A stretch of 59,641 bases of DNA from Dehalococcoidia bacterium (GTDB taxonomy: Bacteria > Chloroflexota > Dehalococcoidia > UBA2979), in assembly GCA_023228765.1 (NCBI GenBank), contig JALOAM010000001.1, positions 1 through 59,641 on the forward strand, read 5' to 3'. The notes beneath the pieces are model-generated. The model searched no databases. It saw only the letters and a list, made by a program, of their open reading frames with translations, and was not told where the DNA came from. Shown here piece by piece: positions 22,113 to 48,784 of this stretch (its first letter is position 1; every line of letters begins with the position of its first letter). The position numbers and the translations under genes were made by a program.

Positions 22113-22649
22113 CTACGCCGACCGGTCCAGCGTCCGGCCACCCTCGACGGACGGGCTGTCGCCCTCCGAGGTGTAGAGCGACCCGGCGAGGACCGTGCGC
22201 AGGTAGTGGATCCAGCGGTCGACCAGTGCGCGGCTGTTCCGGAGCAGCCGTGCGTTCACGGCGTGCGCCTCCTCCAGCGCGACGGCCTCCGCGCGCAGCT
22301 CTCGCCCGGCCCGCTCGAGCTCGTCCGCGATCTCGGTGGGCAGGTGCGTCGCGATCTCGGAGACCGTGGCGGTGTCCGCCGGGATGCCCGTCGCCATCTC
22401 GATCGCGACCAGCGCGGTCATGCGCTCGGTCTCCATCGCGCGGAGGTGGTCCAGCACCTGCTCCTTTTGCTCCACGAGCCGGGTCAGGCGCTCCACGTCT
22501 CCCTCCACGATCGCGTCCTGCTCCTGCGTCGCGATGCCGAGGAGCGCGCGATAGAGGTCGCGCTGCCCCGTGAGGACGTCCGCGAGGGTCACGGCCCCCA
22601 CGGTCAGGTCAGAACGCGGCGAGAGAGTTCGCGTCGAGGAGGAGGTCAC
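22113..22649 (-). CDS. flgN: FlgN-family flagellar export chaperone
   Basis: Helical 178-aa protein with LYRALLGIATQEQDAIVEGDVERLTRLVEQKEQVL. Sits in the flgM-flgN-flgK position. Confidence 0.7.
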   Translation of the reverse strand: MTSSSTRTLSPRSDLTVGAVTLADVLTGQRDLYRALLGIATQEQDAIVEGDVERLTRLVEQKEQVLDHLRAMETERMTALVAIEMATGIPADTATVSEIATHLPTEIADELERAGRELRAEAVALEEAHAVNARLLRNSRALVDRWIHYLRTVLAGSLYTSEGDSPSVEGGRTLDRSA

Positions 22650-22951
22650 GGACTCACCCCGCGGTCGTGCAGCAGGCTCGCGAGGCCGAAGTAGTCCACC
22701 TCGTACTGGCCGTTCGCGATCCTCGACTTCAGGTCCTCCACGCGGGAGGCGCGGGCGTCCGGGGACTCCTTCACGGCGTCCATGATCCGGGCGAACTCGC
22801 GGGCGCCCTCGGACAGCGTCACCTGGTCCGTGCGGCGTCCGGCGGCGTGCGCGCCACGGCGGGCATCCGCGGCGGCTTCGGCTGCCTCGGCGCTCGTGAC
22901 CTGCCGGCGGTAGATGCCGCTGGCGTCGTGGGGGCGGATGGGCTGGACCAT
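22646..22951 (-). CDS. flgM: anti-sigma-28 factor FlgM
   Basis: 101 aa. The C-terminal ASRVEDLKSRIANGQYEVD motif is typical of FlgM. Overlaps flgN by 4 nt. Confidence 0.8.
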   Translation of the reverse strand: MVQPIRPHDASGIYRRQVTSAEAAEAAADARRGAHAAGRRTDQVTLSEGAREFARIMDAVKESPDARASRVEDLKSRIANGQYEVDYFGLASLLHDRGVSP

Positions 22952-22987: not shown

Positions 22988-23812
22988 TTAGACCGTGACG
23001 TCGTTCGCCTGCGTGAGCATCTGTTCGATCGTCCGGAAGGCGACCAGGTTGAGCTGGTAGCCACGCTTCGCCATGACCAGGCCGGTCATCTCCGTCGCGA
23101 TGTCCACGTTGGAGGCCTCCAGCCAGCCGGAGAACACCGCGCCCATGCCGTCCGCGCCCGGCGCGCCGTTGATCGGCGGCTGCGACTCCGGCGTCTCGCG
23201 GTACCGGCTGTTGCCGATCGCCTCGAGGCCCGCGGGGTTCGAGAACCGCGCAAGCTCGATCTGGCCCACCACCTGGCGGACGCCGTCGCGCGGGTCGAAT
23301 GGCCCGAGCGCGGCGAGCTCCGCGTCCGTGTAGTCACGGATCACGGACACCTCGCCGTTGGTCTCGATCCGGAGGCCGCGGAAGTTCTGGGGCAGCGCCA
23401 GCGGCGGATCCAGCAGCTCACCGGAGGCCGTGGTCACCTTGCCGTCCCCGTCCAGCATGAAGACGCCGGAGCGCGTGTAGGCGACGGAGCCGTCATCCAG
23501 GCGGACGCGGAAGAAGCCGTCCCCGCTGATGGCAAAGTCCATCTGGCGGCCGGTGGGCTGCAGCGTGCCCTGCGCGAAGTCGCGCGTCATCGCAGCGGTG
23601 GAGACACCGGCGGACTCCGCCACGTCGCGCTGGTCCACGGTCCCCGTGGCGATGGCGGCGAAGACGGAGGAGGAGTTGAGGATGTCCTGGAAGTGGATCT
23701 TCACCCGCTTGTAGCCGGTGGTGTTCACGTTCGCCAGGTTGTTGGAGATCGCCTCGATGTTCTTCTGCTGCTGCTGCATGCCAGAGACCGCGGCGTCGAG
23801 AGAGAGTGGCAT
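22988..23812 (-). CDS. flgG: flagellar basal-body rod protein (distal rod, FlgG/FlhP-like)
   Basis: MPLSLDAAVSGMQQQQKNIEAISNNLANVNTTGYKR and C-terminal GWLEASNVDIATEMTGLVMAKRGYQLN. Start trimmed to 23812. Confidence 0.88.
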   Translation of the reverse strand: MPLSLDAAVSGMQQQQKNIEAISNNLANVNTTGYKRVKIHFQDILNSSSVFAAIATGTVDQRDVAESAGVSTAAMTRDFAQGTLQPTGRQMDFAISGDGFFRVRLDDGSVAYTRSGVFMLDGDGKVTTASGELLDPPLALPQNFRGLRIETNGEVSVIRDYTDAELAALGPFDPRDGVRQVVGQIELARFSNPAGLEAIGNSRYRETPESQPPINGAPGADGMGAVFSGWLEASNVDIATEMTGLVMAKRGYQLNLVAFRTIEQMLTQANDVTV

Positions 23813-23822
23813 CGCGCGCCTC

Positions 23823-24650
23823 CTACACCCGTCCGAGGTCGGCGACGGCCGTCTCGAGCGTCTTGTTGATCTCGGCGAACACACGCTGGCTGGAGGAGAA
23901 CGTCCGCGCGACGGAGTACATCGTGGTGGCGTTCTGCCCCACGTTGACGTTCGCCTCCTCCAGCGATCCCTGGATCAGGAAGGTGCGCCCCGCCTCCATG
24001 TCCACGGGGGTCACCTCCGCGCCCTCGGGGATGGTGAACTTGGAATCGCCGGCGCGGATCAGGTCCTCCGCGTTCAGGTTCACCAGCTGGAGGCGCGCCA
24101 CGGGGTCCTCGTTCACGTCGATGAACGTGGAGCCATCGGGCTGCGGGATCTCCGTGCTGATCAGCTGGATGACGTCGCCGTTCATGCGGATGCGGATCTT
24201 GTCCGTCGTCAGCGTGATGTGCTGGCCGGCCTCGTCGAGGACGAACGCGCCGTCGGCGCTGATCAGGCGGCCTTCCGGGTCACGGGCGAAGTGGCCGTCG
24301 CGCGTGTAGCGGATGCCCTCGTCGGTCTCGACGACGAAGAAGCCGTCGCCCTGCACCATGACGTCCAGCGCGATGCCGGTCTCACGCTCGGCGCCCTGCC
24401 CGAGGAACGTGCGGACGTTCTCCACGTACGCGCCCGTCCCGATCTGCCCGATGACCTCGTCGAGGCGTCCGGGCACCGGGCCGTCGGCGGGCACGCTGCG
24501 CCGCGCGAGGACGCCGGCGAAGGCGGTCTGCGCGGACTGGTCGGCCTTGTAGCCCACCGTCGAGGAGTTCGCGATGTTGTCCGCGACCACGTCCTGCTGG
24601 CGCATCCCGATGAGCATCCCAGAGGCGGCGGTGTAGAGCGCGCGGATCAT
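23823..24650 (-). CDS. flgF: flagellar basal-body rod protein (FlgF/FlhO-like)
   Basis: MIRALYTAASGMLIGMRQQDVVADNIANSSTVGYKAD and C-terminal GSLEEANVNVGQNATTM. This is the real part of the long ORF 23823-25493. Confidence 0.8.
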   Translation of the reverse strand: MIRALYTAASGMLIGMRQQDVVADNIANSSTVGYKADQSAQTAFAGVLARRSVPADGPVPGRLDEVIGQIGTGAYVENVRTFLGQGAERETGIALDVMVQGDGFFVVETDEGIRYTRDGHFARDPEGRLISADGAFVLDEAGQHITLTTDKIRIRMNGDVIQLISTEIPQPDGSTFIDVNEDPVARLQLVNLNAEDLIRAGDSKFTIPEGAEVTPVDMEAGRTFLIQGSLEEANVNVGQNATTMYSVARTFSSSQRVFAEINKTLETAVADLGRV

Positions 24651-25303
24651 GCGGTCCTCCGGCTCAGACGCACGCCGACCACCACCGACAGCCCGAGGGC
24701 CATCGCGAGCGCGGCGACGCGGATCACGTCGGTGATGAAGGCGGGGTCGCCGGTGTTCGGCAGCGAGCCGGGGACCTGGAGGCCCAGCGAGCCGCCCTGC
24801 GCCTCGCCGCCCTGCCCGTCCGTGGTGGCGATCCCGATGAGGGAGAAGTACCCGCCGATCGAGCGGTCCTCGGTCGGCTGGGGGACAGCGTCGGGGTCCG
24901 GCTCCACGGTGAGGATGAGCAGGTCGAACCCGAAGTCCGCGATCGGCGGCAAGGTGCCCTCGAACGCCACGGCGCCGGAGGCGCTGGCGTTGAAGCGGCC
25001 CGCCGAGATGGCGTCGCCCGCCTCCGAGTTCACGAGCCACGCCTGGTACAGCTCGTCCTCCAGCATCGGCAGACCGTCCGCCTCGATGCGGATGATGCCC
25101 TCCGCGAAGATCAGCTCCGCGCTGCCCGAGGCGTCCTGCGGTCCCCAGTTGGACAGGTCGATGTAGGACAGCTCCACGGTGACCGGCACGCCGTTCGCGC
25201 GCGCCTCGGGCGTCCCGCTCGCGACGAGCGCGAGCACGGCGAGCGCGCCGGCGAGGGCGACGCGGAGTCCACTGCGGATCGGGCTGCGCATGCCGAGGAT
25301 CAT
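24647..25303 (-). CDS. secreted RskA_C-like (anti-sigma-K extracytoplasmic domain-like) protein with LPNTG cell-wall sorting signal
   Basis: Signal peptide ALAVLALVASGTPEARA. LYQAWLVN...AISAGRF...LLILTVEPDPDAVPQPT matches the RskA C-terminal domain pattern as recalled. The C-terminus has LPNTG, a hydrophobic helix and an RLSRRTA tail. 4-nt overlaps with both neighbouring genes. Confidence 0.7.
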   Translation of the reverse strand: MILGMRSPIRSGLRVALAGALAVLALVASGTPEARANGVPVTVELSYIDLSNWGPQDASGSAELIFAEGIIRIEADGLPMLEDELYQAWLVNSEAGDAISAGRFNASASGAVAFEGTLPPIADFGFDLLILTVEPDPDAVPQPTEDRSIGGYFSLIGIATTDGQGGEAQGGSLGLQVPGSLPNTGDPAFITDVIRVAALAMALGLSVVVGVRLSRRTA

Positions 25304-25854
25304 GAGTGACGGCCCTCAGTGCGATCGGTCCGCCCGGACATGCGCGCGATGCGCACCTCCTCCAGGCCGATGTGCAGCTCCCGCGCGATCGCGCGGTCGG
25401 AGAGGCCCTCGTCGGCGAGCTGCGCGATGCGCGAGCGGACGCCAGAGGTCCCGCGCGAGACGAACTCGCCGGCGGCGACCGGGAGGTCGTCACCCTCGTC
25501 GATGGTTCCGTCCTCGAACGTGTCGAGGGAGAGCGGAGCGACGGCCGCGAAAGCGGGCTGCAGGCGCTCGCCCGTCAGGCCGTCACGCGCGCCGCCCGGC
25601 CGGCCACCACTGAGCATCCCGGCGAGGGTCTCGCGCTGGCTGACGAGCTGCGCCTGCATCTCGTCCACGGCTTCCTGCAGGGCGAAGAGCAGCTCCTCCG
25701 CGGACTCCGTGGCCAGCGAGTCCACGTGGTCCTCCAGGAGGTCCATGGGCTGCCGGCTGAACAGGTACGCGTGGTAGAGCACCCCCAGCGCGAGCAGCAT
25801 CAGCGGCACGCCGAGGGCGAGTGTGACCAGGAGGACCGTGGGGGAGACGCTCAT
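25300..25854 (-). CDS. single-pass membrane protein with C-terminal helix-turn-helix (SwrB-position / DUF2802-like architecture)
   Basis: N-terminal TM VLLVTLALGVPLMLLALGVLYHAYLF, a helical middle, and C-terminal RIAQLADEGLSDRAIARELHIGLEEVRIA. Its ATG overlaps the fliA stop (ATGA). Confidence 0.65.
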   Translation of the reverse strand: MSVSPTVLLVTLALGVPLMLLALGVLYHAYLFSRQPMDLLEDHVDSLATESAEELLFALQEAVDEMQAQLVSQRETLAGMLSGGRPGGARDGLTGERLQPAFAAVAPLSLDTFEDGTIDEGDDLPVAAGEFVSRGTSGVRSRIAQLADEGLSDRAIARELHIGLEEVRIARMSGRTDRTEGRHS

Positions 25855-26753
25855 GCTGCCTGTCCCTGCTGCCGGCTGGTCACCCCAGCCCGAAGTCGCG
25901 TCAGCGCGCGGGCGTGGAGCTGGCAGACGCGGGACTCGGAGATGCCCAGCACCTCACTGACCTCCCGCATGGTCAGCTCCTCCTTGTAGTAGAGCGAAAG
26001 GATGAGCTGCTCCCGATCAGGCAAATCCCTAATCGCAAACGCGAGATCACCTATGAGTTCCTGACGCTCGAGGTCAGCGGAGAAGTCCTCCCCGTCCGGG
26101 TCGGCCACCGCCATCGCCCCGCCGGAGTCCTCCTCCCCGTCGCTCGCGCCGAGCGTGTCGAGGCTGACCGTGATCCAGGAGGACTCCACCTGCGCCTGCC
26201 GGTACGCGTCCGGATGGATCCCCATCGCCGCCGCGACCTCCTCGTCCGTGGGGTCGCGGCCGAGCTCGTTGGTGAGCCGGAGGATCGCCTCGTTCGCGTC
26301 GCGCGCCTTCTGGCGCACGGAGCGCGGGAGGCGGTCCAGCGAGCGGAGGGCGTCGATGATCGCGCCGCGGATGCGGGCGATCGCGTACGTCTCGAACTTC
26401 ACACCCTTCGTGTGATCGAACCGCTCGACGGCCTCGATCAGGCCGATCGTGCCGAAGGAGAGGATGTCCTCGTAGTCCAGGATCGACGGCAACGAGATCG
26501 CGAGGCGGCCCATCACGTACTTCACCAGCGGCGCGTATTGCAGGATCAACTGCTCGCGCACGGCCGGGTCACGCTCCTCCATGTAGCGCTCCCACAGCGC
26601 CAGGTTCCGGCGCTGCTGCTCCGCCGGCTCCACCACCGCGAGCTTGCCTCGGCGGCCCGCCGGGCGTGCCGAGGCCGCGGGCGTCCCTCCCGCCGGAGTC
26701 GAGGCCCCCGGCTGCTCGGGCGGTGGGGCAGGCGTACGTCGTCTGTCAGGCAT
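25851..26753 (-). CDS. fliA: flagellar RNA polymerase sigma-28 factor
   Basis: Sigma-70 regions 2, 3 and 4 (LILQYAPLVKYVMGRL, DILSFGTIGLIEAVERFD, LTMREVSEVLGISESRVCQLHARAL). About 45-aa Pro/Ala-rich N-terminal extension. Confidence 0.9.
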   Translation of the reverse strand: MPDRRRTPAPPPEQPGASTPAGGTPAASARPAGRRGKLAVVEPAEQQRRNLALWERYMEERDPAVREQLILQYAPLVKYVMGRLAISLPSILDYEDILSFGTIGLIEAVERFDHTKGVKFETYAIARIRGAIIDALRSLDRLPRSVRQKARDANEAILRLTNELGRDPTDEEVAAAMGIHPDAYRQAQVESSWITVSLDTLGASDGEEDSGGAMAVADPDGEDFSADLERQELIGDLAFAIRDLPDREQLILSLYYKEELTMREVSEVLGISESRVCQLHARALTRLRAGVTSRQQGQAA

Positions 26754-26769: not shown

Positions 26770-27075
26770 TTACGCCGCTCGACTCTCGTCGACGGCGGTG
26801 TCTCGTTCTGCTCGGACTGCGGTCAGGCTGACCGGCTGGGGGTCTTCGTCGTCATCGAGGAGGGCGTCGTCATCCTCGAGGGTGCGGGGGCGATGGACGG
26901 GCGGGGCGGTGAGGACCACGAGCTCCGCGGCGTACGCGACCAGGCTGCCGGCGATGAAGGCGAGCAACCCGCGCAGCATCGCCACCTCGATCGGGTAGCC
27001 GACCGAGGTCGACTGCCACGTCGCGATGATCGCGAGGCCGACGGAGACGTAGAGCCCGGCGCGCAGGATCAGCAC
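26770..27075 (-). CDS. small two-TM membrane protein with acidic C-terminal tail (hypothetical)
   Basis: A GTG start overlaps the pilZ-gene TAG (TAGTG). 101 aa: two hydrophobic helices, then TLEDDDALLDDDEDPQP. Ends 16 nt upstream of fliA. Start and reality are uncertain. Confidence 0.4.
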   Translation of the reverse strand: MLILRAGLYVSVGLAIIATWQSTSVGYPIEVAMLRGLLAFIAGSLVAYAAELVVLTAPPVHRPRTLEDDDALLDDDEDPQPVSLTAVRAERDTAVDESRAA

Positions 27076-27731
27076 TAGATCACGCCCTTTCGCCGCATCT
27101 CCGCCTGCTGTCGGTAGACAAAGCGGACCAGGCGCTCTCGCTCGGAGCGGTTCGGCTCCAGGAACTGGCAGTGCAGCCGGTAGTGCTGGGCACTCGCGAC
27201 GGGCCGGCTGCACGAGAGCACGAGCGCGGCGATGTCCATCTCGAACGGATCGCCGTCGATCTCGAACACCAGCCGCAGGCGCGTGCCGGCCGCGACGAAC
27301 TCGCGGCACTGCAGGAGGATCCCGCCCCCACCGAGGTCCAGGATCACCGCCTGCAACTGCTGGGCCTCGCCCCCGGCGTCGTCCAGTCGCGCGACGATGC
27401 GCGGCGCGATGCGGACGGGGAGCCGGTAGAACTCGCGGCGCTCGGTCTTCTCGGCCTCGCGCGGCGTGTCGATAAAGAACGAGTCGGTCGCCAGCTCCAC
27501 CATGTGCACGGACGTGTTGAAGCGGAACACGCGGCCGTGGACGGTGGTAAACATCGTCAACTGCTCACCGGGTTCGACCACGAGCACCTCGCGGTCACGT
27601 CGAGGCAGCCCCAGCCGCAGCTGGGACGGCAGGATCGCGCGGACGGTCGCCTCGTACGAGACGCCGAGGGGGTCGCCGGGAGGCGATACCTTGAGCCGCG
27701 TGCCGGGCTGCAGATCGACATAGGCGGGCAT
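27075..27731 (-). CDS. PilZ-domain flagellar brake-type protein (YcgR/MotI-like)
   Basis: RREFYRLPV (RxxxR) followed by ILDLGGGGILL (D-x-S/G-x-x-G) about 30 aa later, after an N-terminal PilZN-like half. Confidence 0.8.
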   Translation of the reverse strand: MPAYVDLQPGTRLKVSPPGDPLGVSYEATVRAILPSQLRLGLPRRDREVLVVEPGEQLTMFTTVHGRVFRFNTSVHMVELATDSFFIDTPREAEKTERREFYRLPVRIAPRIVARLDDAGGEAQQLQAVILDLGGGGILLQCREFVAAGTRLRLVFEIDGDPFEMDIAALVLSCSRPVASAQHYRLHCQFLEPNRSERERLVRFVYRQQAEMRRKGVI

Positions 27732-27740
27732 GGTGGCTCG

Positions 27741-29171
27741 CTACCCCACCTTCGCGAGGGTGCGCTCGGCGGCGGGACGCCGCGCCGGGACCACGGGCTG
27801 CGCGGGCGACCACTGCGCCCGCACGACCGCCTCCGCGAGCGCGAGGTTGTCGCCCGGCACGGGAGCATCGCCCACCTGGTCCGACCTCGTCGTAAACGCC
27901 ACCCCGAGGGCAGCCTCGATCAGGACGCTCGCCAGGTGGCCGAAGTGCGCCGTCTCGTCGCAGCGCGTCACGACCGCGCCATCGAGGCCGACCGCGCTGA
28001 ACGCGGAGACCACCTCGGCGAGGTCGGAGCCTTTGGTCGTGGCGGGGATGGTCAGCAGCACCAGGCGCTGGCGGGCGACATGGAGGAAGGAGGTGAGCTC
28101 CGCCATCCGGTCGCGTCGCAGGCCGTTCTGGCCGGGGGTGTCCACGATCACGAGATCCACACCCGGCTCCTGGAGGATCGCCTCCAGCTCATCCGGCGCG
28201 TAGCAGAGCCGGACGTCAAGGCCGGTCACGGCGCCGAACGCCACCAGCTGCTGGGGCGCCCCAGCGCGGTTCACATCCGTGCCTGCGATGACCACGTTGA
28301 GTCCCTGCCGCTGGAGGTCCAGCGCCATCCGCACGGCCATCGTGGTCTTGCCGGCGCCACCGGGCCCCACGAGGAACATCGCACGCTGGCGTCGGCCCAC
28401 CACGCTGGCGACGGGCGGGAGCTTGGCCGCCAGGCGGCGCTCCACCATGGCGGCGAGCGTCTCCTCGTCAGTGGCGGCGCCCGCGTCCACCTCGCCCAGG
28501 AGGTTCGCCGCGAGGGCGGGCGTCATGCCGTGACGCAGCAGCCGCTCGCGTACTCCGCGGAGGGCGGTCGAGCCGCCCTCGATGCGCTGGTCGAGACGCT
28601 CGGAGACGAGCTGCTCCAGCAGCACACGCATCTGGTCGAGCTGGCGGCTCCACGTCTCGTTGCCCTCGGCGGACGGGAGCATGGAGGGCATCGCCGTCGG
28701 GACGGGGAGTGGGGTCGGCGCGGCCGGCTGTTCTGCTCGCTTCGCGGCAGCGCGCTTCGGTGCGGGCTTCTCCACCTCCTGCGGCGCGCGCTTCTCCGTC
28801 ACGCGCTTCTCGGTGGCGCGCTTGCGCGAGGGCCGCACGGGCACCGGGACATCGTCCACGGGCGCGACCGCCTGGAAGCCGGCGAAGGGGCCCGCTGCGA
28901 GCGGTGCCGCGGCGGTCGCCTCGGCGACGGCGCGTACGAGGTCGTGTGCGGCCTCGTCCTGCTCCAGCGTCGCGCGCGATGCTCGGACGTCGGGGGCCTC
29001 CTGCGGGACCCGCGCGACGACCTCGACGAACTCGCGGCCCGGCTGGCCGAAGAGTCCCGGCGCGAACGCCTTGCGGGTCGAGAGGATGACGGCGGCATCG
29101 CCCAGGTCACGTCGGACCTGGTCGTACGCCTCCGCCATCGTCGGTGCCTGGAACCGCTTAGGCTGCTGCAT
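27741..29171 (-). CDS. flhF: flagellar biosynthesis SRP-type GTPase FlhF
   Basis: N-terminal FQAPTMAEAYDQVRRDLGDAAVIL. G-domain motifs LVGPGGAGKTT, DTPGQN, TRCDET. Lys/Arg-rich B-domain. Confidence 0.88.
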   Translation of the reverse strand: MQQPKRFQAPTMAEAYDQVRRDLGDAAVILSTRKAFAPGLFGQPGREFVEVVARVPQEAPDVRASRATLEQDEAAHDLVRAVAEATAAAPLAAGPFAGFQAVAPVDDVPVPVRPSRKRATEKRVTEKRAPQEVEKPAPKRAAAKRAEQPAAPTPLPVPTAMPSMLPSAEGNETWSRQLDQMRVLLEQLVSERLDQRIEGGSTALRGVRERLLRHGMTPALAANLLGEVDAGAATDEETLAAMVERRLAAKLPPVASVVGRRQRAMFLVGPGGAGKTTMAVRMALDLQRQGLNVVIAGTDVNRAGAPQQLVAFGAVTGLDVRLCYAPDELEAILQEPGVDLVIVDTPGQNGLRRDRMAELTSFLHVARQRLVLLTIPATTKGSDLAEVVSAFSAVGLDGAVVTRCDETAHFGHLASVLIEAALGVAFTTRSDQVGDAPVPGDNLALAEAVVRAQWSPAQPVVPARRPAAERTLAKVG

Positions 29172-34302: not shown

Positions 34303-35256
34303 CTAGCTCGCGTTCCGGCGGGCGGCCGCGATGGCGCGCTGCAGCTCGGCGATCTGCTCCTCGCGCGACGATGCCGAGGGAGCCGGCGGCGCCTGCCGCG
34401 CCTGCCCGTAAGACGCGCGCGCCCGAGGACCAGCGGCCGTCGAGCCGTTCGGCATCACCTCGACCGCGTCGATGCTGGCGAGCGTGCGGTCGAAGAGCGA
34501 CTCTCGCTCCTGCTCGGCCGTCGCGATGATCTCCTCGGAGGTGCGGGGAGCGGGATGTGTGCTGCGCGCGAGCATCCCCTTGAGCGCGCCGAAGCGAGGA
34601 GCCTCGGTGGCTTCCGCTGTCGCGACGCGCGAGCGTCGAGGGGCACGCCCCGGGCGAGCCTGGCGCCCGCCCTGCTGCTCCTTCAGCGCCTGACGGCGCT
34701 CGTTCATCTCGGACTGGCGGGCGCGCATCGCCACGAGGCCGGTGCGGAGCGATCCGAGCAACGACATCGCACCGAGGGCGACGCCACTGGCACGTGCCGG
34801 GGCGCGGACCTCGGGCTCCTCGGGCGAGGTGGTGAGGCGCTTGAACTCCTCGGGGTCGTCGACAGTGAGGAGCTGGGTGATGCGTTCCTGCGTCACCCCC
34901 ACCAGCACGGCGCGGTCGCCGAGGCGGACCAGGTGCAGCGTGCGGTTCGGGCCGAGCGCGTGCGTCTCGAGGACCTCGAGGGCGCGTGTGCTACCGCGCG
35001 ATCCTCCGTGGTTCATGCGCCGCACGTACCAGCGCATCGCGTGCACGGCGCCCCAGATCACGGCGACGACGAGGGCGAGACGGATGCCGAGGCTGAACCA
35101 GTCGCCGGCGCCGAAGGAGGTGACGCTGGAGCCCACCTCGTCGCCGGACTCGCCCGCCTCCTGCGCGGACGCAGTCGCGACCGTGGCGACGGCGAACAGT
35201 CCGCCGAGGAGCGTGGCTCCGACGAAACGGATGGAGGGACGATCGAGTCGCATCAC
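34303..35256 (-). CDS. fliO: FliO/FliZ-like flagellar protein with a long charged C-terminal extension
   Basis: Signal/TM, a second TM (LALVVAVIWGAVHAMRWY), then the FliO-type motif LEVLETHALGPNRTLHLVRLGDRAVLVGVTQERITQL. About 190 extra Ala/Arg/Glu-rich residues. Lies in the fliY-fliO-fliP position. Confidence 0.65.
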   Translation of the reverse strand: MMRLDRPSIRFVGATLLGGLFAVATVATASAQEAGESGDEVGSSVTSFGAGDWFSLGIRLALVVAVIWGAVHAMRWYVRRMNHGGSRGSTRALEVLETHALGPNRTLHLVRLGDRAVLVGVTQERITQLLTVDDPEEFKRLTTSPEEPEVRAPARASGVALGAMSLLGSLRTGLVAMRARQSEMNERRQALKEQQGGRQARPGRAPRRSRVATAEATEAPRFGALKGMLARSTHPAPRTSEEIIATAEQERESLFDRTLASIDAVEVMPNGSTAAGPRARASYGQARQAPPAPSASSREEQIAELQRAIAAARRNAS

Positions 35257-41048: not shown

Positions 41049-41846
41049 CTAGATCGCGGCGCGCGTGTCCGTGTCGGACGCGTCGAGGCCCACGAGGCCG
41101 CGCTTGATCGCGTAGCGGATCAGGTCCGTGCGGTTCTTGGCGTGGAGCTTCGTCATGATGTGGGCGCGGTGCGCCTCCACCGTCTTCACGGAGATCACCA
41201 GCTCGTCCGCGATCGCCTGGTTGGAGAGGCCCTCCGCGATGAGCTGGAGCACCTCCCGCTCGCGCGGGGTCAGCGTCTCGTAGCCCGTCTTGCCCTCCGG
41301 CTGCTTCGCCTGCATCAGCACGTCGTTGACGGAGATCTCCTCCGAGACCGAGGTGGAGAAGTAGGTGTTGCCGCGGCGGACGGACTGGATGGCGAGCAGA
41401 AGCTCCTCCATGTCCGAGTTCTTCACCACGTAGCCGGCGGCGCCGGCGCGCAGCGCCTGCAGCAGCCGTTCGTCCTCCAGGTATGCGGTCAGGATGAGGA
41501 CGCGCGTGCTGGGCGAGCGCTTCACGATCTGCCGCGTCGCCTCGATACCGTTGAGGCCCGGCATCACCATGTCCATCAGCACCACGTCCGGCATCAGCCG
41601 CTCCGCAGAGTCGACGGCGTCACGACCGTTGGTCGCCTCGCCCACCACTTCCAGGCCATCCTGCGCCTCCAGCAGCATCCGCAGCGCCTGCCGGAGGAGC
41701 GCGTGGTCGTCCGCGACCAGGATGCGGATGTGCGAGGAGCCGCGTACCGGCGGCCGCACTCGGGTAATCGGGGCGTTCAGACGGTCGTGCTGATTCACTT
41801 GGCTTCCCCCACCTACCCGCAGGTTACCCGACGAGTAACTGTCCAC
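41049..41846 (-). CDS. NarL/LuxR-family response regulator
   Basis: Receiver (ILVADDHALL...VVLMDMVMPGLNG...ILTAY) plus GerE HTH (LTPREREVLQLIAEGLSNQAIADELVISVKTVEAHRAHIMTKL). GTG at 41846 gives a roughly 40-aa leader; GTG at 41798 is an alternative start. Confidence 0.88.
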   Translation of the reverse strand: MDSYSSGNLRVGGGSQVNQHDRLNAPITRVRPPVRGSSHIRILVADDHALLRQALRMLLEAQDGLEVVGEATNGRDAVDSAERLMPDVVLMDMVMPGLNGIEATRQIVKRSPSTRVLILTAYLEDERLLQALRAGAAGYVVKNSDMEELLLAIQSVRRGNTYFSTSVSEEISVNDVLMQAKQPEGKTGYETLTPREREVLQLIAEGLSNQAIADELVISVKTVEAHRAHIMTKLHAKNRTDLIRYAIKRGLVGLDASDTDTRAAI

Positions 41847-47525: not shown

Positions 47526-48683
47526 CTAGCTGCACTTGAGCAGCAGCGGCGTCAGCTCCGGCAGGCCGGAGGGGAACAGCGCGGCCCACGACGCATTCAC
47601 GAACGCGGGGCGCCCCACCGTGTACTGCACCAGCCGCCCATCCGGCGCGCTCGCCCACATCGCGAGTTCCGGGAGCGGGCAGGCGATCGCCTGGATCAGC
47701 GTGTCCGTGCTGCCGCCGCCGAAGAGGACCATGCTGATGCCGCCGCGGAACACCTCGCCGTCCACGATCGTGCCGGTGGCGATCTGCGGCGCGGGCTCGG
47801 CCGGCGGTGGTGTCGAGCTTGCCGTGACGGTGACCAGGATATCGTCCGTGGTGATGTTTCCGCCGTCGCTCACGATCAGCCGGAACGTCATCGACGCCCC
47901 CACCTCCGAGGGCGCGACGAAGCTGACCGAGGTCCCCTGCGCGATCTGCGGCAGGACCGTCGGGCCGCTCTGCTGCGCCCAGAAGGCGCTCGCGTTCCTC
48001 GTACCCGTCGCCTGCAGCGTCACGGTCTCGCCCGGCGCCACCAGTCGGTCTGGCCCGGCGCTCACCGCGCCCGAGGCGGACGCTGCCGCGGGGCCCTCGG
48101 CGTTGGTGGAGGTGAAGCCGCGGCCCGCGTGGCCGTTGGAGTCAGTGATCGGCTCGAAGTTCACGCCCTCGATCGCGTACGCGCCGGAGAACGGCAGCGA
48201 GTCGCCGGAGGACCACGCCTCGTCGTCGCGTACGTTCAGCTGGAAGTGGATGTGCGCGACACCGTTGTTCCCGGCCTCGCCAGCCGGCGCCACCGTCCCG
48301 ATCCGCTGCCCGAGGTTCACGGGGTCGCCGCGCCGCAGACCGGACTCCGGGTAGATGTGGCACATCATCAGGTCGACCTCGGCCGTGAGGATGGAGACGC
48401 AGGTGCTGGAGGAGTAGCCAACCTCGCCCGCGACCGGCGCGAGCACCGGCGTCCCGCCGGTGTCCGAGCCGTCCGTGCGCCAGATGTCCAGCGCGAACGG
48501 GTCGACGCCCTCGTGCGTGACGGTGTTGTACCCAGCCAGCACTTCCCACTGCGTGCCAGCGGGGGCAGGGGCCTTGATGCCTGTGGTCTGGGCGGATGCG
48601 TCTCCGGCGACTACCAGGGAGACGGCCAGTACGAAGAAAGCGGCGACTCCGAGGAGCCGCGCGAACGCGGGCGCTGTCGCCAA
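47526..48683 (-). CDS. secreted M23-family metallopeptidase with C-terminal Ig/PKD-like and extra domains
   Basis: HxxxD/HxH-type motifs (...THEGVDPFALD..., NNGVAHIHFQL). TTG start at 48683, 6 nt after GGAGG, gives a clean signal peptide ending ASA-Q. The ORF-track start at 48758 is probably too long. Confidence 0.8.
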   Translation of the reverse strand: MATAPAFARLLGVAAFFVLAVSLVVAGDASAQTTGIKAPAPAGTQWEVLAGYNTVTHEGVDPFALDIWRTDGSDTGGTPVLAPVAGEVGYSSSTCVSILTAEVDLMMCHIYPESGLRRGDPVNLGQRIGTVAPAGEAGNNGVAHIHFQLNVRDDEAWSSGDSLPFSGAYAIEGVNFEPITDSNGHAGRGFTSTNAEGPAAASASGAVSAGPDRLVAPGETVTLQATGTRNASAFWAQQSGPTVLPQIAQGTSVSFVAPSEVGASMTFRLIVSDGGNITTDDILVTVTASSTPPPAEPAPQIATGTIVDGEVFRGGISMVLFGGGSTDTLIQAIACPLPELAMWASAPDGRLVQYTVGRPAFVNASWAALFPSGLPELTPLLLKCS

Positions 48684-48784
48684 AACGAACCTCCGACGTC
48701 GCCCCGCCCCTCCATAGGAACTCAAACGAGCGTGGGATTCAACCCGTTCGCCGGACAACTGAGTTGGGTGGACGCGGAGGAGAG

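Follow-up and report, generated by a model that had tools for sequence, protein, structure and literature searches.

Two genes between fliA and flgF in the flagellar operon of monoderm Chloroflexota encode a SwrB/FipA-type membrane protein and a secreted protein with an LPXTG sorting signal

The two genes that separate fliA from flgF, here called orfX and orfY, are real and belong, as accessory genes, to the flagellar operon of monoderm Chloroflexota. By position and family, OrfX is a SwrB/FipA-type protein, and OrfY is an undescribed secreted protein that carries a wall-anchoring signal and is kept at the same spot across the phylum. We lean, with somewhat better than even confidence, towards a reading in which OrfX acts as an assembly factor at the cytoplasmic face of the membrane and OrfY as a wall-tethered extracytoplasmic flagellar accessory protein, the two not forming an anti-sigma system. 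The pair may reveal how the flagella of single-membrane Chloroflexota fit into the wall.

Gene order and conservation of the locus

The window, which is the whole stretch of 59,641 nucleotides that was analysed (contig JALOAM010000001.1 of a Dehalococcoidia bacterium), has a GC content of 69.5%, and the GC3 values of orfY (0.97) and orfX (0.92) are typical for real genes here. The sequence confirmed the coordinates that the first-pass annotation had given to both genes, as well as the LPNTG motif and the helix-turn-helix (HTH) string RIAQLADEGLSDRAIARELHIGLEEVRIA, which corresponds to OrfX residues 142-170. It also confirmed that the fliA-orfX, orfX-orfY and orfY-flgF junctions are all ATGA overlaps (25851-25854, 25300-25303 and 24647-24650, respectively). 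The same annotation concluded from these overlaps that both proteins are made stoichiometrically with sigma-28 and the rod proteins. This over-reads the coupling, since the overlaps indicate co-translation and not equal stoichiometry. Other 4-nt overlaps occur in the same operon, at fliW/flgL, flgM/flgN and motA/motB, and are thus common here; for comparison, SwrB of B. subtilis has been reported to be a low-abundance, sub-stoichiometric protein (bioRxiv 10.1101/2021.04.30.442225). The features of the locus are listed in Table 1; PilZ was also identified among the flanking genes in the Pfam/NCBIfam search.

Table 1. Genes and protein segments at the orfX/orfY locus (positions in the window).
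Feature	Positions	Strand	Basis or description
flhF (SRP54-type GTPase), proposed OrfX partner	27741..29171	-	Pfam SRP54 6.5e-27
fliA (sigma-28, FliA/WhiG family)	25851..26753	-	Pfam Sigma70_r2/r3/r4; NCBIfam TIGR02479, 250.8 bits
orfX, 184 aa	25300..25854	-	SwrB/FipA-type (DUF6115/DUF2802-like) single-pass membrane protein
OrfX residues 5-34, N-terminal transmembrane helix	25753..25842	-	AF2 helix, pLDDT 88-95
OrfX residues 37-82, juxtamembrane helical stalk (LLFALQEAV...QRxxLxxxLS)	25609..25746	-	AF2 helices 37-50, 52-82
OrfX residues 83-135, variable, largely disordered linker	25450..25608	-	pLDDT <50 at 97-134
OrfX residues 136-183, C-terminal three-helix HTH-like domain	25306..25449	-	AF2 helices 136-148, 153-160, 164-183
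orfY, 218 aa	24647..25303	-	Secreted RskA_C-superfamily (likely) beta-sandwich protein, C-terminal LPXTG sorting signal
OrfY residues 1-36, Sec-type signal peptide	25196..25303	-	Sequence; AF2 helix 9-28
OrfY residues 37-153, eight-strand RskA_C-like beta-sandwich	24845..25195	-	AF2 strands 41-152, pLDDT 75-93
OrfY residues 154-180, flexible Gly/Gln/Glu-rich tether	24764..24844	-	pLDDT <50 at 154-182; variable in alignment
OrfY residues 181-185, LPNTG sortase-type motif	24749..24763	-	Sequence
OrfY residues 186-218, juxtamembrane DPAFITDVIR, hydrophobic helix, RLSRRTA tail	24650..24748	-	AF2 helix 187-216, pLDDT 87-92
flgF (distal rod)	23823..24650	-	Pfam Flg_bb_rod, LlgE_F_G_D1, Flg_bbr_C; TIGR02490
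flgG-like second distal rod gene	22988..23812	-	ORF; synteny with rod gene called in L001
flgM, canonical anti-sigma-28 factor	22646..22951	-	Pfam FlgM 1.2e-14
flgN, after flgM	22113..22649	-	Pfam FlgN 4.5e-22

The pair is conserved beside fliA in relatives, as our survey found the same order in 32 species-level genomes: flhA-flhF-pilZ-small TM gene-fliA-orfX-orfY-flgF-flgG-flgM. This flhA-to-flgM order recurs on distant metagenome contigs and on the megaplasmid of Thermomicrobium roseum. In the 32 genomes, orfX was located directly downstream of fliA wherever the upstream region was visible. The flgF start fell on the last codon of orfY in 24 of the 32 genome loci, and the two genes also overlap in T. 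roseum.

OrfX as a SwrB/FipA-type membrane protein

The initial description of OrfX as an N-terminal TM helix, a helical region and a C-terminal HTH holds in the AF2 model, in which the last part is an HTH-like three-helix domain; this architecture also agrees with the published descriptions of FipA and SwrB. Homologues were retrieved with E-values down to 1e-107 among the 120 best-scoring listed. When aligned, they share invariant residues in the TM motif (G15, P17, L20-A22, V25-H28) and in the C-terminal domain (G150, S152-R154, G163-V167, R171), with Q73, R74, L77 and S82 conserved in the stalk. The linker varies in length and is absent from mini-versions of 100-114 aa. Because no positive charge precedes the TM helix and R34 follows it, OrfX is predicted to adopt an N-out/C-in topology, with the bulk of the protein in the cytoplasm.

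The C-terminal domain has weak Pfam matches to HTH_38, HTH_23 and DUF6115 and folds into three helices in the AF2 model, but its LuxR/NarL-type Foldseek matches (0.6 A over ~35 residues) are not statistically significant. DUF6115 was matched by 24 of 25 OrfX homologues (best E 4.5e-5, none shown above the cutoff). The window protein scored 15.9 bits against this family (PF19610, E 0.018), below the gathering cutoff of 27, which B. subtilis SwrB reaches with exactly 27.0 bits; SwrB also weakly matches DUF2802 (0.017). A direct comparison of the OrfX and SwrB families with hhalign gave a weak match over 35 C-terminal columns (E 3.5e-4, probability 37%).

OrfX had also been likened to DUF2802 proteins by architecture and to SwrB by position. 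The second likeness fits, since orfX directly follows fliA as swrB follows sigD, and the DUF6115 family agrees with it. One orthologue (L036) speaks for the first, as it matches DUF2802 with 27.5 bits (E 3.6e-6, cutoff 33.5) and DUF6115 at 2.8e-5. For the window protein, no match to DUF2802 (PF10975) was obtained at E<=1, and this family is not among the 25 listed for the 25 OrfX homologues. DUF2802 is now named FipA, and the glycine and leucine positions of its C-terminal domain are required for FlhF binding (PMC11620751). In OrfX, G150, E166 and I169 reproduce the G-x15-E-x2-[L/I] spacing and correspond to G110/E126/L129 of FipA and G136/E152/L155 of SwrB. G150 and E166 are invariant in the homologue alignment, and the spacing is kept in the mini-versions of L041, L046 and L047. 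SwrB L155P is a loss-of-function mutation, and the hhalign register agrees with the mutational data.

SwrB is an N-out/C-in protein whose TM histidine is functionally required and on which the formation of SwrB puncta depends (bioRxiv 10.1101/2021.04.30.442225). It has been proposed to act on the export gate, and FlgW of Campylobacter jejuni was reported as a distant relative. FipA, in turn, has been reported only in genomes with both FlhF and FlhG. We found no flhG in the window. Among the loci examined, orfX was present wherever flhF was seen at the syntenic site and absent from all six loci without flhF, in which flhA runs straight into pilZ (L040, L051, L053, L060, L068 and L071). A single loss in one clade probably accounts for the shared absence, which we count as one evolutionary event.

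OrfY, its sorting signal and its flagellar context

The first reading gave OrfY a signal peptide, followed by an RskA_C-like domain and then LPXTG, a composition that HMM matches support. Homologues of OrfY were retrieved with E-values down to 1e-128 among the 120 best-scoring listed. The signal peptide has a basic n-region and a hydrophobic core, followed by ARA and then NGVP, and N37, V39 and P40 of the mature N-terminus are invariant. The sandwich carries the motif YQxWLVNS...AISxGRF...LTVEPxPDxxPQPT. RskA_C (PF10099) was matched by 10 of 26 OrfY homologues (best 1.2e-9), the T. roseum protein reaching 28.7 bits (1.8e-6) against a cutoff of 29.4. The window protein matched NCBIfam NF052375 'antisigma' (E 5.5e-6) at 26.5 bits for a cutoff of 100, gave no Pfam match at E<=1 and reached no curated threshold. 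OrfY is likely a member of the RskA_C superfamily, with family membership not established for the window protein itself. Its fold has weak Cu/Zn-SOD-like matches, all to generic Greek-key sandwiches (best E 2e-3), and no sequence relative was found in the PDB. NCBI names one homologue 'anti-sigma factor', and JGI lists a relative as 'LPXTG-motif cell wall-anchored protein'.

The full sorting signal is present in 31 of the 32 genome loci. L181, P182, T184 and G185 are invariant in 26 homologues, as are D192, R195, L199 and S206 in the close family, and Gram_pos_anchor was matched by 5 of the 26 homologues (best 2.2e-4). Among the 150 best family representatives, 114 carry LPxT[GA], 99 of them together with a TM segment and a basic tail. 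Eleven have a TM anchor without LPXTG, and thus covalent wall linkage may not be essential for OrfY. The label 'classical sortase substrate' fits the signal itself; a search of the window and of ~520 kb of related loci turned up no sortase gene. No flagellum-associated sortase substrate was found in the searchable literature.

OrfY could instead be a general surface protein, associated with the cell wall or S-layer, which is carried in the flagellar operon and has no specific flagellar role. Its LPXTG architecture is typical of generic surface proteins, and its sandwich is a generic Greek key without a diagnostic match. However, the distribution of the family argues against this explanation, which we regard as quite improbable. 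A profile search at E<=1e-10 retrieved 181 OrfY-family clusters (50% identity). In nine of the nine distant relatives with a readable, and thus informative, neighbourhood (L037, L040, L041, L042, L043, L044, L046, L047 and T. roseum L045), OrfY was encoded in a flagellar context, between fliA (or orfX) and flgF. Lineages from Dehalococcoidia to Thermomicrobiales share this position at identities down to ~35%, in most cases with a stop codon that overlaps the next start, and none of the members examined was located outside a flagellar cluster.

The first-pass annotation proposed that OrfX and OrfY resemble the cytoplasmic/TM and extracytoplasmic halves of a split membrane anti-sigma factor. Such a factor would control sigma-28 in addition to FlgM. 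The location of the pair immediately downstream of fliA fits this idea, as do the RskA_C-like domain of OrfY with its NCBIfam 'antisigma' match and its NCBI-named homologue, the resemblance of the OrfX C-terminal domain to sigma-70 region 4 and LuxR-type HTH domains, and the lowered sigma-D-dependent expression of B. subtilis swrB mutants. We nevertheless consider it highly improbable. No zf-HC2, RsiW or RskA N-terminal type domain was found by Pfam/NCBIfam in OrfX, OrfY or their homologues, and the N-terminal TM helix of OrfX, with the bulk of the protein C-in, is the reverse of the N-terminal half of RskA. OrfY would expose only ~7 residues to the cytoplasm. The adjacent sigma factor belongs to group 3 (FliA; it has regions 2, 3 and 4) and is not of the ECF SigK type, and FlgM and FlgN are already present three genes downstream. 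Moreover, the SwrB/FipA relatives of OrfX serve in assembly and positioning and do not act as anti-sigma factors. Finally, the two genes are separable: orfY is retained beside fliA in clades without any orfX (at least six loci), and therefore the two proteins are not obligate halves.

Proposed roles and comparison with known systems

In the model we favour, the N-out/C-in anchor of OrfX would hold the stalk and the three-helix domain at the cytoplasmic face of the membrane. We infer that this HTH-like domain is a protein-protein interaction module and not a DNA binder. The target of OrfX would be the nascent basal body, reached most probably by way of FlhF, like FipA, and/or of the export gate, as proposed for SwrB. 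OrfX would thereby promote flagellar assembly, raising sigma-28 activity only indirectly through FlgM export. OrfY would be exported by Sec, with ~27 flexible residues tethering its sandwich to the LPXTG signal. Sortase would link it to peptidoglycan, or its C-terminal helix would at least hold it at the membrane. On the outer side of the membrane, it would cooperate with FlgF and FlgG, the distal rod proteins co-translated with it, as a wall-tethered accessory to flagellar assembly or structure in an envelope lacking both P- and L-rings. Tepidiforma, a flagellated member of the Dehalococcoidia, has a cytoplasmic membrane, peptidoglycan and an S-layer and no flgH or flgI, and the Dehalococcoidia orders with flagella have genes for peptidoglycan synthesis (PMC10284905).

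The pair might also work as a checkpoint across the envelope, in which OrfY would sense something that happens outside the cytoplasm, for instance the arrival of the rod at the wall or its passage through it, and signal to OrfX. The C-terminal helix of OrfY, or the peptide left after cleavage, would contact the TM helix of OrfX, which would then switch on the export apparatus or FlhF. In streptococci, the sorting-signal peptides that remain after cleavage act as intramembrane signals. The two membrane helices show a conservation that is unusual for mere anchors, and their genes lie side by side with an overlap. Elsewhere, RskA_C domains form the sensor half of membrane anti-sigma factors, and the SwrB puncta need the TM histidine. 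We consider such signalling unlikely, however, as at least six loci keep OrfY without orfX and OrfX exposes only ~4 residues outside the membrane. In addition, the D..R juxtamembrane motif is missing in L046 and L047, both of which carry orfX, so the features of the tail do not strictly track orfX.

The assembly-factor model could be extended, and here we are much more tentative. OrfY might be the first flagellar component that sortase attaches covalently to peptidoglycan, surrounding or guiding the distal rod where it crosses the wall, and might replace the P/L-ring bushing or serve as a factor for rod passage or rod length. It would have been recruited from an anti-sigma sensor domain, and OrfX, SwrB, FipA and FlgW would belong to one ancient family of membrane-anchored partners of FlhF or the export gate. 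If this were true, SwrB of the Firmicutes, FipA of the Gammaproteobacteria, FlgW of the Campylobacterota and OrfX of the Chloroflexota would be one family.

Among known systems, the P- and L-ring proteins FlgI and FlgH (chaperone FlgA) of diderm flagella, which these genomes lack (PMC10284905), offer a functional analogy only: their place is outside the cytoplasm at the wall, and their synthesis goes together with that of the distal rod. They have no sequence or fold relationship to OrfY, for which ring formation would be pure conjecture. OrfY resembles LPXTG substrates in its signal peptide and in its LPNTG motif, after which come ~16 hydrophobic residues and the tail RLSRR. It differs from them in that the sequence of the tail is conserved beyond the needs of anchoring, and one OrfY subfamily places 20-25 residues between LPxTGG and the TM segment. 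With RskA, the anti-sigma-K factor of Mycobacterium, and other RskA_C anti-sigma factors, the OrfY sandwich shares a likely superfamily and the YQxW...G.F...EP...P motifs. In contrast to these proteins, OrfY lacks the anti-sigma domain at the N-terminus, has a cleavable signal peptide where they have a type-II TM anchor, and is encoded next to FliA and not to an ECF sigma factor. To our knowledge, RskA-type proteins do not end in an LPXTG sorting signal.

OrfX and SwrB both have a single N-terminal TM helix with a histidine (H28, invariant in OrfX), the N-out/C-in orientation predicted for OrfX, a helical junction with conserved hydrophobic residues, a poorly conserved middle region and a small C-terminal HTH-like domain, in which SwrB L155 aligns with OrfX I169. 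Their similarity is weak and confined to ~35 C-terminal residues, and the conserved histidine is at the cytoplasmic end of the helix in OrfX, whereas SwrH13 is mid-helix. The function of SwrB is not confidently transferable to OrfX. Compared with FipA, the membrane partner of FlhF in Vibrio, Pseudomonas and Shewanella (PMC11620751), the window OrfX is without a DUF2802 match and without an flhG seen in the window, and its host is a monoderm Chloroflexota and not a polarly flagellated gammaproteobacterium. The two share a short extracytoplasmic N-terminus, a TM helix, a coiled region and a conserved C-terminal domain; both are encoded beside the flhF/fliA operon, and the presence of the OrfX gene tracks flhF in the loci examined.

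orfX and orfY: two conserved genes of the flagellar operon in Chloroflexota

Both the table of ORFs and the sequence of the minus strand place fliA, orfX, orfY and flgF in the row proposed by the first-pass annotation, with ATGA stop/start overlaps at each junction. Both orfX and orfY are real genes, since their GC3 values are 0.92 and 0.97 in a window of 69.5% GC; the long ORFs on the opposite strand (e.g. 23718-25166+ and 25306-25989+) lack this bias and were rejected as spurious. The overlaps had also been read as evidence that the two proteins are made stoichiometrically with sigma-28 and the rod proteins. However, 4-nt overlaps indicate co-translation, not equal stoichiometry, and they are common at further junctions of this operon.

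Domain models identified the neighbors as FliA/WhiG, FlgF, FlgM, FlgN, a YcgR-like PilZ protein and FlhF, and the operon continues upstream, both in the window and in the compared locus L001, with flhA, fliO, fliN/Y, fliM, fliL, motB and motA. No sigma-28 promoter (TAAA-N13-17-CCGATA) was found in the whole window and no sigma-70-like promoter within its 18.5-32 kb region, where the single terminator detected is at chance level.

Features of the flagellar region in the window
Feature	Position	Strand	Basis or description
flgF	23823-24650	-	ORF table and sequence; FlgF match
orfY	24647-25303	-	218 aa; ORF table and sequence
LPNTG of OrfY	24749-24763	-	residues 181-185
orfX	25300-25854	-	184 aa; ORF table and sequence
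fliA	25851-26753	-	ORF table and minus-strand sequence; FliA/WhiG match
small protein gene	26770-27078	-	between pilZ and fliA
pilZ	27075-27731	-	YcgR/MotI-like; directly after flhF
flhF	27741-29171	-	neighbor identified by domain scan
fliO	34303-35256	-	317 aa
response regulator	41049-41846	-	NarL/LuxR type (Response_reg and GerE)
M23/PKD-like protein	47526-48758	-	410 aa

Among the matches listed, the best homologues reached E-values of 1e-128 for OrfY and 1e-107 for OrfX, and all named homologues of both came from Dehalococcoidia/Chloroflexota metagenome-assembled genomes (MAGs). A species-level scan, taking one genome per species, yielded 32 loci, all labelled Chloroflexota. The pair is kept beside fliA in these relatives, in the order flhF-pilZ-fliA-orfX-orfY-flgF-flgG-flgM wherever the contig is long enough, and the last orfY codon coincides with the flgF start in 24 of the 32. 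More distant OrfY members with a readable neighborhood all (9/9) lie between fliA (or orfX) and flgF. These include the cultured Thermomicrobium roseum, whose megaplasmid carries TRD_RS09465 and TRD_RS09470 between fliA and two rod genes; by position they correspond to trd_A0042/43, which are absent from the discussion in the T. roseum genome paper (PMC2615216). In the literature searched, whose coverage is incomplete, neither Chloroflexota family is described.

The surrounding region offered several further observations. The gene separating pilZ from fliA specifies a small protein of about 100 aa that has an acidic tail as well as two hydrophobic segments and gave no match in a Pfam scan. Genes comparable in size and character are found at this site in L001 (103 aa), L040 (138), L044 (114), L046 (85), L047 (92) and T. 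roseum (89), and this protein is a third conserved unknown of the flagellar operon. The response regulator gene, just upstream of the motA end and on the same strand, could encode a regulator of the flagellar operon. The 410-aa protein, a possible wall hydrolase encoded a few kb away from the flagellar genes, has an M23 peptidase domain that scores below the Pfam cutoff as well as a PKD-like domain. We saw no MinD-type flhG in the window; weak matches to CbiA/ParA fall inside the FlhF GTPase domain. Finally, a MAG labelled 'Dehalococcoides mccartyi' carries an orfX homologue without a TM helix (L012, 5501-5905), with genes that look acetyltransferase-like by eye from their translations in place of fliA upstream. 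This is either a broken operon or a chimeric contig, and the organism label is doubtful because Dehalococcoides is not flagellated.

The domain and sorting signal of OrfY

The window OrfY gave no Pfam match of its own; its sub-threshold hit to the NCBIfam model NF052375 'antisigma' (5.5e-6) aligns with the extracytoplasmic, C-terminal portion of the model. Of 26 homologues, 10 matched RskA_C (best 1.2e-9) and five Gram_pos_anchor, and the T. roseum orthologue scored 28.7 bits against RskA_C. The likeness to the extracytoplasmic domain of RskA, noticed at first from sequence patterns, is real at the domain level across homologues, although the window protein itself falls under the RskA_C threshold. 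An AF2 model (mean pLDDT 71.5) begins with a signal-peptide helix, followed by an eight-strand sandwich (residues 41-152, pLDDT 75-93), a disordered tether (154-182) and a confident helix (187-216). Foldseek returned only weak matches (best E 2e-3), all to sandwiches of a generic Greek-key/Cu,Zn-SOD-like kind; these indicate no more than the fold class, because the SOD metal ligands are absent from OrfY. Searching PDB sequences with the profile of OrfY gave nothing at E<=10.

The LPNTG motif lies where it had been reported. Invariant positions in the alignment comprise L181, P182, T184 and G185 of this motif, much of the beta-domain, and D192, R195, L199 and S206 of the tail. Searching 1.84 billion representative proteins with the OrfY profile recovered 268 relatives, of which 181 had E<=1e-10. 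Among the best 150, LPxT[GA] occurs within the last 75 residues of 114, and 99 of these also have the hydrophobic segment and basic tail; 11 carry a TM anchor only, without LPxT[GA], and the other 25 are either truncated or carry the domain C-terminally, like ordinary anti-sigma factors. In OrfY, a sensor-type domain has apparently been put to use in another architecture. The protein is a new variant: an RskA_C-type domain in a protein with an LPXTG signal, fixed in flagellar operons phylum-wide. The literature searched, again with incomplete coverage, contained no earlier report of a flagellar operon that encodes an LPXTG protein.

We found no sortase among the 38 window ORFs scanned and no TLxTC-type sortase candidate in 520 kb of loci including flanks, and literature searches gave no usable reports on sortase in Chloroflexi. 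Two single clusters from the profile search join the OrfY-like domain to neighboring functions, P0496 (541 aa) to a FliA-like sigma factor and P0371 (318 aa) to the FlgF D1 and C-terminal domains. These predictions could reflect true fusions, or else frameshifts or faulty gene calling where the genes are tightly packed; as single clusters they were not counted as evidence.

OrfX, its co-occurrence with flhF, and the anti-sigma reading

On its own, OrfX gave only weak, sub-threshold Pfam matches, to HTH_38, HTH_23 and DUF6115. In a family-wide scan, 24 of 25 homologues matched DUF6115 (best E 4.5e-5), and the divergent orthologue L036 matched both DUF2802 (3.6e-6) and DUF6115 (2.8e-5); the window protein lies below the thresholds of both. 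The B. subtilis SwrB sequence used as query was checked in three ways. Its length (167) and residues H13, L48, F51, L53 and L155 agree with published mutants, it shares 99% identity with database entries that are named SwrB and carry PF19610, and it scores 27.0 bits against DUF6115 (DUF2802 weakly, 0.017). DUF6115 is thus the SwrB family. The comparison of OrfX with SwrB, initially made by position, is supported by the DUF6115 matches of the homologues, and that with DUF2802 proteins by the divergent orthologue, whose match also lies below the cutoff. A profile-profile alignment of the OrfX and SwrB families covered the last 35 columns with an E-value of 3.5e-4 and a probability of only 37%.

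The AF2 model of OrfX starts with a TM helix (5-34) and continues through further helices (37-82) and a disordered segment (97-134) to a three-helix bundle (136-183). The HTH-like string, confirmed at residues 142-170, falls in this bundle, which is HTH-like in shape; however, its Foldseek superposition on LuxR/NarL HTH domains (0.6 A) spans only about 35 residues and is not statistically significant. Invariant residues are found in the TM motif (G15, P17, L20-A22, V25-H28) and towards the C-terminus (G150, S152-R154, G163-V167, R171). Mini-versions of 100-114 aa, barely more than a TM helix and the C-terminal domain, keep a G-x15-E-x2-L spacing. We place OrfX as a probable new member of the SwrB/FipA kind.

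In T. roseum, the protein at the OrfX position (TRD_RS09465; L045 11451-11834, NC_011961.1) has 127 aa, one TM helix, no kinase domain and a C-terminal HTH-like motif that appears degenerate. Its annotation, 'transmembrane sensory transduction histidine kinase for metal resistance', is almost certainly wrong and should be corrected.

Wherever flhF is visible at the syntenic site, an orfX-like gene separates fliA from orfY. This holds for the window, the Dehalococcoidia loci, L041, L044, L046, L047, L077/L078 and T. roseum. In six loci without flhF (L040, L051, L053, L060, L068, L071), flhA runs directly into pilZ, orfX is absent (6/6) and orfY directly follows fliA, a junction likewise seen on shorter contigs of the same clade (L042, L043, L048-L070). 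The FliA proteins of the six are about 80% identical to that of L040, and because these loci belong to one clade, the co-absence is probably one loss event. The pattern fits an FlhF-linked role for OrfX, by analogy with FipA. The clade lacking both genes consists mostly of soil-metagenome Chloroflexota, and its OrfY has LP[NRK]TGG followed by a Pro/Ala-rich spacer of 20-25 residues and then the TM segment. Strict co-variation of the juxtamembrane D..R motif of OrfY with orfX was rejected, as L046 and L047 have orfX without the motif.

The first-pass annotation had also proposed that OrfX and OrfY are the two halves of a split membrane anti-sigma factor acting behind fliA. While the observation of the gene pair stands, with OrfX now probably of SwrB/FipA type and OrfY carrying an RskA_C-like domain with an LPXTG signal, this reading is not supported. 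A cytoplasmic anti-sigma domain was detected neither in the two proteins nor in their homologues. OrfX has its TM helix first and its bulk, as predicted, in the cytoplasm, the reverse of the RskA N-terminal half, and its relatives function in assembly and positioning; OrfY would expose only some seven residues to the cytoplasm. Furthermore, loci without orfX still keep orfY, the adjoining sigma factor is a group-3 FliA, and FlgM and FlgN are both present. The name 'anti-sigma factor' given to some OrfY homologues in databases should be corrected as well.

Proposed roles and comparison with known flagellar proteins

Most likely, OrfX would sit at the inner membrane face and serve FlhF, the export gate or both as an adaptor of the SwrB/FipA type. 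OrfY would be exported and either tethered to peptidoglycan by a sortase through LPNTG or held by its C-terminal helix, and would act at the level of the wall alongside the distal rod proteins translated directly after it. There, OrfY may serve as a bushing, a rod-passage or length factor, or a sensor. In the main rival reading, which is less likely, the OrfY tail would interact with the OrfX TM helix at the level of the membrane; both segments are conserved, but the persistence of orfY where orfX is lost speaks against it.

The proposed action of OrfY in the wall bears on a poorly understood step, the passage and stabilization of the rod in single-membrane walls without a P- or L-ring. Flagellated Dehalococcoidia are monoderm, with membrane, peptidoglycan and S-layer, and lack flgH and flgI (PMC10284905), and the T. 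roseum genome paper explicitly raised the anchoring of the flagellum in the wall for Chloroflexota and left it open (PMC2615216). OrfY is a concrete candidate for this role because it is predicted to be secreted, bears a wall-anchoring signal and is encoded, throughout the phylum, next to the distal rod genes on their fliA side. Should it prove to be a wall-anchored motor part, the interest would be high; on present evidence it is moderate. Cultured, flagellated strains of Tepidiforma have already been viewed by cryo-ET (PMC10284905).

For OrfX, three known proteins offer a comparison. DUF2802 proteins, now called FipA, have a 5-residue periplasmic N-terminus and bind FlhF in a manner that depends on the conserved G110 and L129 (PMC11620751). 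SwrB, thought to activate flagellar type III export, is N-out/C-in and requires a histidine in its TM helix (bioRxiv 10.1101/2021.04.30.442225), and its L155P allele is a loss of function. FlgW of Campylobacter, a reported distant relative, is reported to bind FliO. The window FliO is unusually long, with the Pfam FliO match restricted to residues 76-148, which is of interest since SwrB/FlgW-type proteins have been proposed to target FliO.

The C-terminal domains of FipA, SwrB and OrfX have in common a G-x15-E-x2-[L/I] spacing (G110/E126/L129, G136/E152/L155 and G150/E166/I169, respectively), so that the residue whose substitution inactivates SwrB occupies the position of OrfX I169 and FipA L129. 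This shared motif, together with the co-loss of orfX and flhF, links SwrB, FipA and the Chloroflexota OrfX, and suggests FlhF as a candidate for the missing target of SwrB.
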